Source of the DNA: a virus
Taxonomy: Duplodnaviria; Heunggongvirae; Uroviricota; Caudoviricetes
DNA length: 53,705 nt
Strand: one strand, 5' to 3'
IMG/VR virus record: IMGVR_UViG_3300037466_000352
The notes under the pieces were generated by a model, which saw only the letters and a list, made by a program, of their open reading frames with translations, had not been told where the DNA came from and searched no databases. The translations under genes were made by a program, and so were the position numbers. Position 1 is the stretch's first letter. Every line of letters begins with the position of its first letter. Of the stretch, positions 33,469-39,272 are shown piece by piece.

Positions 33469-33476
33469 TATAAATA
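33469..33476 (+). promoter_or_regulatory. perfect T4 late promoter TATAAATA
   Basis: 20 nt before the first tRNA; identical boxes at 35749 and 38426. Confidence 0.8.
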
Positions 33477-33583: not shown

Positions 33584-33771
33584 CCGGGATTAGCTCAGTG
33601 GTTTTCATGAAAATGTGTCTGATCCACACTTGGTCATGATAGGTCGTTGTGTAAGGAAGTTTGGTGGACGCAGAGTAACGTTCCTGAACATACCAGAAAG
33701 AGATACACGACTTCAGAGCGTCGGTCTGATAAACCGAAGGTCGCAGTGTTCGAATCCTGCATCCCGGACCA
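33584..33771 (+). tRNA. tRNA-Ile(GAU)-like RNA with ~110-nt structured insertion in the D-loop
   Basis: CCGGGAT/ATCCCGG acceptor, GCTC/GAGC D-stem separated by the insert, TCGGT-CTGATAA-ACCGA anticodon arm, TTCGAAT, CCA. Confidence 0.8.
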
Positions 33772-35268: not shown

Positions 35269-35358
35269 GGCGAGTTGGTAGAGTGGTTTATTGCAGCGGT
35301 CTTGAAAACCGCCGACCCCTAAAAAGGTCCGTGAGTTCGAATCTCACACTCGCCGCCA
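35269..35358 (+). tRNA. tRNA-Ser(UGA)
   Basis: GGCGAGT/ACTCGCC, loop CT-TGA-AA, long variable arm, G73, CCA. Confidence 0.92.
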
Positions 35359-35597: not shown

Positions 35598-35724
35598 GGT
35601 TCTGGTGACTGAGTGGTTTAAGGTCTGGTCCAAGCGGATGTCAACAGGCGTACATCTGCGAAAACCGTTGGGGCGTGACTTAGTTGACACGCTCACGTGA
35701 GTTCGAATCTCACCCGGAACCCCA
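35598..35724 (+). ncRNA. tRNA-Ser-derived tRNA-like RNA with a hairpin in place of the anticodon loop
   Basis: GTTCTGG/CCGGAAC acceptor plus G-1:C73, D-loop GAGTGGTTTA and T-arm GTGAGTTCGAATCTCAC identical to tRNA-Ser, 8-bp inserted hairpin, CCA. Confidence 0.75.
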
Positions 35725-35748: not shown

Positions 35749-35756
35749 TATAAATA
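35749..35756 (+). promoter_or_regulatory. late promoter TATAAATA
   Basis: 14 nt before the ferritin-like ORF. Confidence 0.75.
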
Positions 35757-35769
35757 GAAGACTGAAACG

Positions 35770-36315
35770 ATGAAGACATCGCAACAGTGGTGGAATGAAG
35801 TCAAGCAGTCCCCGGCATTGCTGAAGGAATGGCTGACCAAGCAGTTCATCGGTGAAGTAACCGCAGCCGGTCGTATTGAGATGTTCGCTGACAAGTTCAG
35901 GCCGCAACACCCGGTGTCGAATACGGCGCGACGCGTCCTTCTCGCAATCGCGCGACAAGAACGCCAACACGCGGATTGGGTTGCAACCCTTCTGGATTCG
36001 CGTGGCATCAAGGTCGATGCTGAAGCGCTGGAACGCGCTGAAGACCGGTACTGGAAAGAAACCCTTCCCGGCATCACGGACTTCGAGACGGGTACTGCCG
36101 TCGCAGCACACGCCGAAGGCATGCGTCTGGAACGCATCCGTGTCATCTGCAACGATGACGAATCGCCGGAAGACATTCGTTTGGTGTTCAAACGAATCCT
36201 GAAGGACGAAGAGTGGCACGAAGCTACCTTCACTGCGCTGTCAACGCCTGAAGCGCTGGCAGCAACGAAAGGCAACCATGAACTAGGCCTGAAAGCGCTA
36301 GGTTTGGAAGCCTAA
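35770..36315 (+). CDS. ferritin-like diiron-carboxylate protein
   Basis: GEVTAAGRI, QERQH, AEGMRLER, DEEWH (two E..H helix pairs). Confidence 0.78.
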   Translation: MKTSQQWWNEVKQSPALLKEWLTKQFIGEVTAAGRIEMFADKFRPQHPVSNTARRVLLAIARQERQHADWVATLLDSRGIKVDAEALERAEDRYWKETLPGITDFETGTAVAAHAEGMRLERIRVICNDDESPEDIRLVFKRILKDEEWHEATFTALSTPEALAATKGNHELGLKALGLEA

Positions 36316-37478: not shown

Positions 37479-38423
37479 ATGTCTTTGAAGTCCAAGCTTT
37501 ACGTTATTGCAGTTGTATCAAACCCCGTTCGATATGAAAGCCGCTACAGGCTGTTTCGTGAGTTCAAGGCGCGCATGGAAGCGACGCCGAATGTACAACT
37601 GATTTGCGTCGAACATGCTTTTGGACGACGCTTGCACGAAGTGACTGATCCGAACTGCCCTTGGCATGTTCAACTTCGTGGTGGTTCGGAATACGAACTG
37701 TGGATCAAAGAAGGTCTTATCAACGCTGGCTTGAAAAAGCTGTACGAGATGGACCCGAATTGGGAATACGTAGCGTGGGTCGATGCAGACATCTCGTTCG
37801 ATGATCCCGATTGGGCGTTGGAAACAATGCACGCCCTTCAGCATTACGCAGTGGTGCAGCCGTGGTCGATGTCCTACGACATTGGTCCCGACAATGAAAC
37901 CGTGATTCATAAGGCAAGTTCCTTTGGTCACGACTTCGCATGCAAGGTGCAACGCAAACCTTGGAAGCCTTACGAAGAAACGTACCATCCTGGTTATGCT
38001 TGGGCGGCAACGCGAGAAGTAATCGATGGTCTTGGCGGTAAGCTGATCGACTGGTGCATTCTTGGTGCTGGCGATCATCACATGGCACATGCGTTCACAG
38101 GGAATATCTGGGCCGCAGTGGACCCGCAACTAGGCGGCACATATCGTCGTCGCGCTGCACAGTTCCAATTGCTTGCAGACCGTCATGTGAAGCAGAACTT
38201 GGGCTTTGTTGAAGGTGGTTTGCGCCACTACTGGCATGGTCCGAAACGTAAGCGCTACTACATCGAGCGCAACGACATTCTGCGTCGAAATCGTTATGAC
38301 CCTGATTGGGACGTTGCGGTTGACCATAATGGTGTACCGTTCTTGACTGACGGGAAGCCACAACTTCGTGACGATATTCGCATGTATATGCGGGCACGTG
38401 ACGAGGACAGTCTTGAACTGTGA
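37479..38423 (+). CDS. GT-A-fold glycosyltransferase-like protein
   Basis: LWIKEGLIN, YVAWVDAD (DxD), HPGYAWA, GAGD..M, HYWHG. Confidence 0.6.
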   Translation: MSLKSKLYVIAVVSNPVRYESRYRLFREFKARMEATPNVQLICVEHAFGRRLHEVTDPNCPWHVQLRGGSEYELWIKEGLINAGLKKLYEMDPNWEYVAWVDADISFDDPDWALETMHALQHYAVVQPWSMSYDIGPDNETVIHKASSFGHDFACKVQRKPWKPYEETYHPGYAWAATREVIDGLGGKLIDWCILGAGDHHMAHAFTGNIWAAVDPQLGGTYRRRAAQFQLLADRHVKQNLGFVEGGLRHYWHGPKRKRYYIERNDILRRNRYDPDWDVAVDHNGVPFLTDGKPQLRDDIRMYMRARDEDSLEL

Positions 38424-38582: not shown

Positions 38583-38681
38583 AGAATTACCAAGGGTGAA
38601 GGACTTCGGATTGGGCTACTTTCTCTACTCCCGGTCCCATATTTCCGATGAACCCTTACTCTTTTCGCAGTGCTTATCGGT

Positions 38682-38754
38682 GTGACAGTATCTCAGTTGG
38701 TAGAGAACCACATTGTGAGTGTGGTAAGCGTCGGTTCGAACCCGACCTGTCACC
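38682..38754 (+). tRNA. tRNA-His(GUG)
   Basis: GTGACAG/CTGTCAC, loop TT-GTG-AG, C73; no encoded G-1 and CCG in place of CCA. Confidence 0.82.
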
Positions 38755-38775
38755 CCGATAAGCATTGCACCCAAC

Positions 38776-39015: not shown

Positions 39016-39096
39016 AGAATAGAAGTATGCAGCAATACCTGAAAAGGGTACGCCTGTACCTGAATTAAGGATTGCTGTGGATCGTAGTACATGAAT

Positions 39097-39180
39097 GGGC
39101 GAGTGGCTTATGGAAATCTGGTACACCTACGTGCCTTAGAAGCACGGCTTTTCTCGGTTCGAATCCGAGCTTGCCTACCA
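39097..39180 (+). tRNA. tRNA-Leu(UAG), atypical
   Basis: Loop CT-TAG-AA, A73, CCA; enlarged D region, short variable region. Confidence 0.8.
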
Positions 39181-39188
39181 AACAAAAC

Positions 39189-39272
39189 GCGCGAATGGCT
39201 TATGGAAATCTGGTACACCTACCGGATTCAAAATCCGGGCTTTTCTCGGTTCGAATCCGAGTTTGCGCACCA
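39189..39272 (+). tRNA. tRNA-Leu(CAA), atypical
   Basis: Loop TT-CAA-AA; D and T regions identical to the Leu(UAG) copy. Confidence 0.8.

Follow-up and report, generated by a model that had tools for sequence, protein, structure and literature searches.

What can a transfer RNA (tRNA) gene do for a virus when a hairpin stands in the place of its anticodon loop? The question is raised by an element of 127 nucleotides (nt), located at positions 35598-35724 on the plus strand of the IMG/VR record IMGVR_UViG_3300037466_000352. This stretch of 53,705 nt (hereafter, the window) belongs to an uncultured T4-like myovirus and encodes a tail sheath, a portal, a major head protein and a gp43-type polymerase, the latter about 43% identical to those of the nearest cultured phages. 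As judged from sequence comparison, the locus is a real RNA gene under structural selection, and it apparently represents a conserved, undescribed phage RNA. It is probably a non-decoding RNA built on a serine-tRNA chassis, in which the tip of the hairpin, bearing the 8-mer ACAGGCGU, would act as a putative sequence-specific binding site.

The limits of the element (type-1 in the following) were drawn from its sequence, an alignment to the Rfam model of selenocysteine tRNA (tRNA-Sec), a scan for T-loop and acceptor pairing, and its orthologs. Its ends form an acceptor stem of 7 base pairs (bp; 35599-35605 with 35714-35720), to which G-1 (35598) and C73 (35721) add an eighth pair, the whole 5′ strand (35598-35605) facing 35714-35721; the encoded CCA end follows at 35722-35724. 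The D-arm (35607-35625) carries a loop of the serine type, defined by alignment and pair table, and folding places a long variable arm of about 24 nt, of 7 bp plus one, at 35671-35694. The T-arm (35697-35713) is identical to that of a canonical tRNA-Ser(UGA) located at 35269-35358 on the same strand, which adjoins the element in every relative and is its parent or paralog, and the two genes also agree in the 3′ side of the anticodon arm (35660-35667). The arm itself (35626-35667) is extended, as supported by sequence, fold and the pair table of the orthologs: a base stem of 4 bp (35626-35629 with 35664-35667) is followed by a 4x4 internal loop, CCAA facing GAAA (35630-35633 and 35660-35663), and then by an 8-bp helix (35634-35641 with 35652-35659) closed by a 10-nt tip (35642-35651), so that the loop interior at the anticodon position comprises 34 nt and not 7. 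Comparison of hairpins locates the invariant ACAGGCGU at 35644-35651. The cloverleaf with the long anticodon arm has a folding energy of -45.5 kcal/mol, within 1.1 kcal/mol of the minimum free energy (-46.6). The original prediction, made from the letters of this DNA, had described a tRNA-Ser paralog with an 8-bp hairpin replacing the anticodon loop and a His-type G-1:C73 pair; each of the parts that it listed is present, the internal loop, helix and tip account for the replaced loop, and the G-1:C73 pair is kept in all three orthologs known.

Relatives were reached through a neighbouring glycosyltransferase-like gene (37479-38423), and the three Ser-like orthologs that could be compared are the element, L044:6279-6403 and L043:7378-7503. 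The first of the two relatives is the closest phage (89% identity), and its copy lies 13 nt after tRNA-Ser(UGA); the second copy, 9 nt after the same tRNA gene, belongs to G002, a 92%-complete relative of 168 kilobases (kb; loci L022, L043 and L045; 81% identity). Neighbouring proteins in the three phages are 40-89% identical. All three orthologs share G-1:C73, a U5.G68 wobble, an identical D-loop and the CCA end, and every pair of the acceptor stem, the T-stem and the hairpin is standard in each of them, with none broken. Nine double compensatory changes were counted, two in the acceptor stem, three in the T-stem (in L043), three in the hairpin (window vs L044) and one in the base stem; indeed, the 8-bp helix of L044 keeps eight of eight pairs despite its three double changes, and sequence comparison gives one double compensatory change in the L044 variable arm. 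In both L044 and L043 the cloverleaf is the unconstrained structure of minimum free energy. A search for relatives through the ferritin-like gene that follows the element (35770-36315) led to distant phages only, without the element.

Since the helices are kept through compensatory changes in the orthologs, the element is not a decayed gene. Covariation among homologs had been proposed, together with the original prediction, as a way to tell a functional gene from random decay, and it returned compensatory pairs. The opposite explanation, namely a functionless duplicate of tRNA-Ser(UGA) undergoing decay after the chance insertion of a palindrome, may draw on the rejection of the element by tRNA finders and on two defects of the window copy, a 27:43 mismatch and, after deletion of 27 nt from the loop, a C at position 33. 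It does not account for helices that are all preserved, through nine double compensatory changes, across three diverged phages, for an invariant CCA and D-loop, or for a tip motif common to unrelated bodies; the compensatory differences also exclude that the orthologs are recent copies. This explanation is thus largely refuted, and we regard it as scarcely credible.

The tip provides the second line of evidence. The window and L044 carry the same loop 8-mer, ACAGGCGU, on helices that differ at three of eight pairs. The Ser-like ortholog of L043 has a 4-bp hairpin only, without ACAGGCGU; the gene next to it, at L043:7509-7598, is a 90-nt RNA of different build (type-2) that bears the ACAGGCGU tip. 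In type-2 RNAs, a 7-bp terminal stem is followed directly by CCA, the D-region is reduced, a long interrupted arm is present and the long variable arm is missing; their bodies, of 85-130 nt, are unrelated to the Ser-like body. In either type of chassis, the discriminator base takes part in a pair. IMG/VR was scanned for the 8-mer followed by a T-loop, and carriers were counted among the matches listed; ordinary tRNAs with the 8-mer in a stem, such as the anticodon stems of tRNA-Ser or tRNA-Arg(CCU), were left out. The Ser-like carriers are the window and L044, each with one carrier and only of this kind, whereas type-2 carriers are L043, L099, L149, L047, L102, L096, L100, L064, L131, L056 and L147; the distant T4-like relatives L099, L149, L047 and L046 are carriers of type-2 only. 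At least nine further carriers (L056, L064, L096, L100, L102, L118, L131, L146 and L147), on contigs of 22-251 kb, are found in the tRNA arrays of unrelated tRNA-rich phages.

A scripted tabulation of these hairpins showed that ACAGGCGU is unvarying in 11 distinct hairpins among the matches listed, while each stem position is occupied by three to four types of pairs and the nucleotide just 5′ of the 8-mer may be C, U or A. One row of this tabulation, L099 5828, corresponds to the 5′ end of an ordinary tRNA. All the tabulated hairpins lie upstream of a T-arm, inside phage tRNA arrays, and the tip is found on at least three kinds of tRNA-like chassis. Among the genomes checked, carriers are mutually exclusive, one per genome, and in G002 just one of the five copies of the 8-mer is in a hairpin next to a T-arm. 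With an invariant 8-mer on differing stems and bodies, the tip is thus the conserved unit, which has been moved between chassis with one copy kept per genome. RNAalifold, applied to the type-2 alignment, recovered the acceptor and T stems and not the hairpin, because MAFFT had misaligned the latter. In Aeromonas phage Aeh1 the 8-mer occurs once, inside a coding gene.

Does the element belong to an RNA family that is already described? Of the features of a canonical tRNA it has the acceptor stem, the D-arm, the T-arm with its TTCGAAT-type loop and the CCA end, and it lacks the anticodon loop of 7 nt in which position 33 is U and position 37 a purine. ARAGORN does not call it, and the Rfam tRNA model (RF00005) gives no match at the element, neither at the gathering score nor at E <= 10. 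The tRNA-Sec model (RF01852) aligns to it end to end, with 26.4 bits and E = 0.0064 in a 701-nt search, which reflects the long arm and an acceptor/T stack of 8 + 5 bp; the score falls short of the cut-off (47), the element has no 7-nt loop with UCA, and position 73 is C instead of G. As for tRNA-His, the G-1:C73 pair is present, and the GUG anticodon and the short variable region are not. YrlA (RF02553) does not match at the element either. We define the phage ACAGGCGU-tip RNAs on a tRNA chassis as members of a tRNA array whose 8-mer is in a hairpin loop, where the hairpin has 4 bp or more and precedes a T-arm, acceptor pairing and a (C)CA end; the element shows every one of these features. 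Searches of Rfam and of the literature found no family or paper describing such RNAs, and blastn searches for close relatives in cultured phages returned matches to tRNA-Ser or to the T-arm only, and none for type-2 RNAs.

Could the hairpin be an insert, to be removed from an interrupted tRNA? The original prediction had noted that deletion of 27 nt (35632-35658) leaves CCCGAAA, that is, a CGA anticodon with C33, and this is correct; it had also considered a precursor for a splicing step, and here the evidence is less favourable. The proposal would be that the hairpin is inserted between positions 33 and 34 of a tRNA-Ser(CGA), cut out by a putative endonuclease, and that the ends are resealed by the phage ligase and kinase, giving a tRNA that reads UCG, the top serine codon of the phage. 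Consistent with this, CGA is followed by AAA after the deletion, and excision from the L044 copy produces a fully canonical loop with U33 (CGA or GGA). RNA ligase genes of both families, Rnl1 and Rnl2-like, lie 8-11 kb downstream of the element, and a polynucleotide kinase is also encoded by the phage; the Rnl1 of T4 is known to seal tRNA at position 33/34. However, none of the enumerated excisions that leave a 7-nt loop gives U33 in the window copy, and the L043 ortholog would yield GUG, UUG or UAG rather than CGA, and such differing anticodons are not expected of orthologous tRNAs. The fold of the element contains no bulge-helix-bulge (3-nt/4-bp/3-nt), the mark of archaeal and eukaryal intron-bearing tRNAs, and endonucleases of the EndA family (PF01974) are absent from G002 and G004, in searches where the controls matched. 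Bacterial group I introns are self-splicing, measure about 200 nt or more and have a P1-P9 core; the insert, of 26-27 nt, is far below this size and has no Rfam intron match. ARAGORN in intron mode found nothing at default stringency and, at lowered stringency, proposed only a Leu(AAG) model whose anticodon stem consists of four G.U wobbles and one C-G pair. The discriminator is C73, as opposed to the G73 or U73 cited for serine identity (PMC5389517). Furthermore, the same tip is found on bodies unable to become tRNAs: a type-2 RNA without its hairpin is left with a loop of 4-5 nt, therefore the hairpin there is not merely an intron. Splicing is thus disfavoured, and we hold it to be unlikely. 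Still less likely is its most specific version, in which an endonuclease recognising the invariant tip would excise the insert at 33/34, kinase and Rnl1 then resealing the ends into a tRNA-Ser(CGA) for UCG codons; were it true, the enzymes by which a bacterial virus repairs tRNAs would have become a pathway for splicing them.

The same repair genes are the context for a decoy, intended for anticodon nucleases of the PrrC, RloC, colicin or PARIS type, which was among the functions originally predicted. The island that holds the array also encodes two RNA ligases and a kinase, and in T4 such enzymes counter PrrC. The structure of the tip, however, gives this idea no support: it lacks the U33-NNN-R37 frame and resembles no 7-nt anticodon loop, its distance from the elbow exceeds that of a real anticodon by about 12 bp, and the position just 5′ of the motif varies. 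A decoy of this kind therefore seems very unlikely.

The other part of the original prediction, that of a non-decoding tRNA mimic which is not an accident, is supported by the conservation of the element, by its compensatory pairs and by an invariant tip common to other tRNA-like bodies. Such a chassis RNA could operate as follows. The tRNA-like body would allow excision from the transcript by the host tRNA machinery, with a 5′ cut by RNase P that, given the pairing of G-1 with C73, would probably come one base early, in the manner of tRNA-His, and with the 3′ end trimmed to the encoded CCA. The body is predicted to fold into the L-shape of tRNAs, with an interrupted helix of about 12 bp in place of the anticodon loop that would hold the tip far beyond the anticodon position. 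As the discriminator is paired, only the 3-nt CCA would overhang, which should disfavour ordinary charging as well as entry into the ribosome. The invariant ACAGGCGU would be the working part, a predicted sequence-specific site for a partner, which we think is more likely a protein than an RNA; the chassis would give processing, stability and perhaps a second contact of the tRNA type, following the modular logic of Y RNAs. Indeed, a hairpin in place of the anticodon, with its motif on differing bodies, makes the binding of a partner likelier than the reading of codons.

Some observations weigh against a chassis that serves only to present the tip. The Ser-like orthologs known are three only, and that of L043 is structurally intact though devoid of the tip, so the chassis may have a function of its own, outside the proposed model. 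A36-A37-A38 are kept in the 3′ part of the loop after the CGA triplet, as a decoding tRNA-Ser(CGA) would predict, and UCG, the codon read by CGA, is the commonest serine codon of the phage (20.9 per 1000, 40% of serine codons). The protein that binds Y RNAs was also looked for: the TROVE/Ro60 domain (PF05731) is absent from G002, G003, G004 and G005, where the controls matched.

The intact L043 ortholog speaks for a body that can be charged and does not decode, the tip being secondary: enzymes or toxins acting on the acceptor end or on the serine-type long arm would find in it a sink or a decoy, or it would be a carrier of histidine or serine for non-ribosomal use. The G-1:C73 pair, the main identity element for HisRS, is kept in three of three orthologs, and those of L044 and L043 have G1:C72, G2:C71 and A3:U70 together with the long arm, as serine tRNAs do. 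This explanation leaves the strict invariance and the portability of the tip unaccounted for; type-2 carriers have neither the long arm nor G-1:C73, and no defence system of such specificity was linked to the locus in this analysis. We assign to it a small chance. The presentation of a tip by a tRNA chassis remains our preferred explanation.

Other candidates for the partner or target of the tip were considered and set aside. A search for DUF2828 gave no match anywhere, neither in the relatives nor in controls, and so carries no weight. Both the window and L044 have an upstream YqeY-domain gene; two near-complete carriers have none, and this lack of co-occurrence speaks against the protein as the partner and, to this extent, against the proposed model. 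An intergenic hairpin of the array (39028-39075) contains, at 39048-39057 on the plus strand, a 10-nt exact complement of the tip plus two stem bases; this complement is missing from the homologous L044 hairpin, and it may be due to chance. Positions 1828-1835 of E. coli 23S rRNA are complementary to 8 nt of the tip consensus, a match expected in about one case in five, and in G002 the copies of the tip complement are at chance level. Finally, a codon-like reading of the tip, where NAC followed by A would pair with Q-type anticodon loops, relies on a variable position beside the invariant 8-mer, and it is not taken as evidence.

How would the element be expressed? The region of the window from 33.4 to 40.2 kb contains 13-14 tRNA genes, all on one strand, which is also that of the element. 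Three copies of the T4-late-type promoter word TATAAATA are present in the window (at 33469, 35749 and 38426), where 0.26 would be expected, and all of them are on the plus strand, within the tRNA island, each inside GTATAAATAGA. This placement suggests late-type transcription units for subclusters of tRNA genes. The word at 33469-33476 (plus strand) would head a unit in which the element is the last gene, and between 33469 and the element neither a sigma-70-like site nor a convincing terminator was found; the next word, at 35749-35756 (plus strand), is 25 nt 3′ of the element and precedes the ferritin-like gene. The latter (plus strand), with a rubrerythrin fold, directly follows the element in the window and is not adjacent to it in relatives. 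The gene is widespread on large phage contigs, and some of its homologs carry the Pfam family of MiaE, the tRNA ms2io6A37 hydroxylase. The glycosyltransferase-like gene used to reach the relatives (plus strand) encodes 314 amino acids, has no Pfam match and is the best-conserved protein gene of the array, with 81-89% identity in relatives and more than 880 homologs, always among tRNA genes.

The original prediction had also pointed out that expanded tRNAs may be a theme of this array, and several expanded tRNA-like genes were indeed found, both here and in the arrays of relatives. A tRNA-Ile-like gene (33584-33771, plus strand), in the same transcription unit as the element, has a module of about 110 nt in its D-loop. 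Two tandem, near-identical tRNA-Leu-like genes (39097-39177 and 39189-39269, plus strand), with anticodons UAG and CAA, have an enlarged D-arm region and a variable region that is short compared with the long arm expected of tRNA-Leu. ARAGORN reports the first as '???' and misses the second, their Rfam tRNA scores being 33.7 and 36.8 bits; L044 has one gene of the enlarged-D-arm kind and one canonical tRNA-Leu with the long arm. A tRNA-His(GUG) (38671-38766, plus strand), with U at position -1 and without an encoded CCA, is bracketed by a 10-bp inverted repeat, by which its acceptor stem would grow into a long hairpin that may serve in processing. In G002, a 147-nt tRNA-like gene at L043:9684-9830 (also L045:3098-3244), downstream of the glycosyltransferase-like gene, has, besides its T-arm and a terminal stem of 7 bp that leads directly into CCA, a large insertion in its interior. 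Unrelated phages have Ser-type bodies of 111-137 nt with the same D-loop and other insertions in the anticodon arm (L011:3883-4019, L012:10110-10230 and, on the minus strand, L019:2188-2310, L009:900-1011 and L014:3109-3219); the insertion of L011 is again directly 5′ of an intact UGA-AA.

Taken as a group, the ACAGGCGU-tip RNAs constitute a recurrent and structurally constrained family, with an invariant 8-base tip on interchangeable tRNA-like bodies, in T4-like and in unrelated tRNA-rich phages. Phage tRNA arrays hold an entire layer of genes that standard tRNA finders and Rfam miss, and the 8-mer offers a concrete, mutable handle for pull-downs and genetics, by which a partner and a role could be assigned to such RNAs.

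How does the element compare with known systems? Stable species other than tRNAs have been recognised in phage tRNA clusters since the 1970s; among them are RNAs C and D of T4, for which we know of no established function. Species 1 RNA (rnaC) and species 2 RNA (rnaD) resemble the element in being small stable RNA genes within a tRNA cluster, on the tRNA strand, and in rnaC, moreover, the T-arm is canonical, the termini pair, and long hairpins replace the normal anticodon arm. Unlike the element, they have no ACAGGCGU tip, Ser-type D-loop, G-1:C73 pair or encoded CCA, and a comparison at the sequence level, with no covariance model, detected no similarity. tRNA-Sec, the best-scoring Rfam model, resembles the element in its long variable arm and in its acceptor/T stack of 8 + 5 bp; it differs in having a 7-nt loop with UCA and G73, whereas the eighth pair of the element uses the discriminator itself. 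The allo-tRNAs are Ser-type RNAs with unusual cloverleaves, found in bacteria and phages, and for some of them a role as regulatory non-coding RNAs was proposed (Mukai et al. 2017, PMC5389517). Like the element, they have a serine-type body in which the variable arm is long and the acceptor branch departs from the standard; however, their branches are 8/4 or 9/3, they carry G73 or U73 and a normal 7-nt loop, and they decode in E. coli, while the element has a 7/5 branch with G-1:C73 and no 7-nt loop. A parallel in modular design is offered by YrlA and by the Y RNAs of bacteria and mycobacteriophages (RF02553), some of which are phage-encoded and which join a tRNA-like module to a protein-binding helix (Chen et al. 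2014, PMC4201824). The GNCGAA Ro motif is not conserved here, and the arrangement differs: YrlA has its tRNA-like part inside and uses its ends for the Ro-binding stem, whereas the element pairs its ends into the acceptor stem and bears the handle at the anticodon position.
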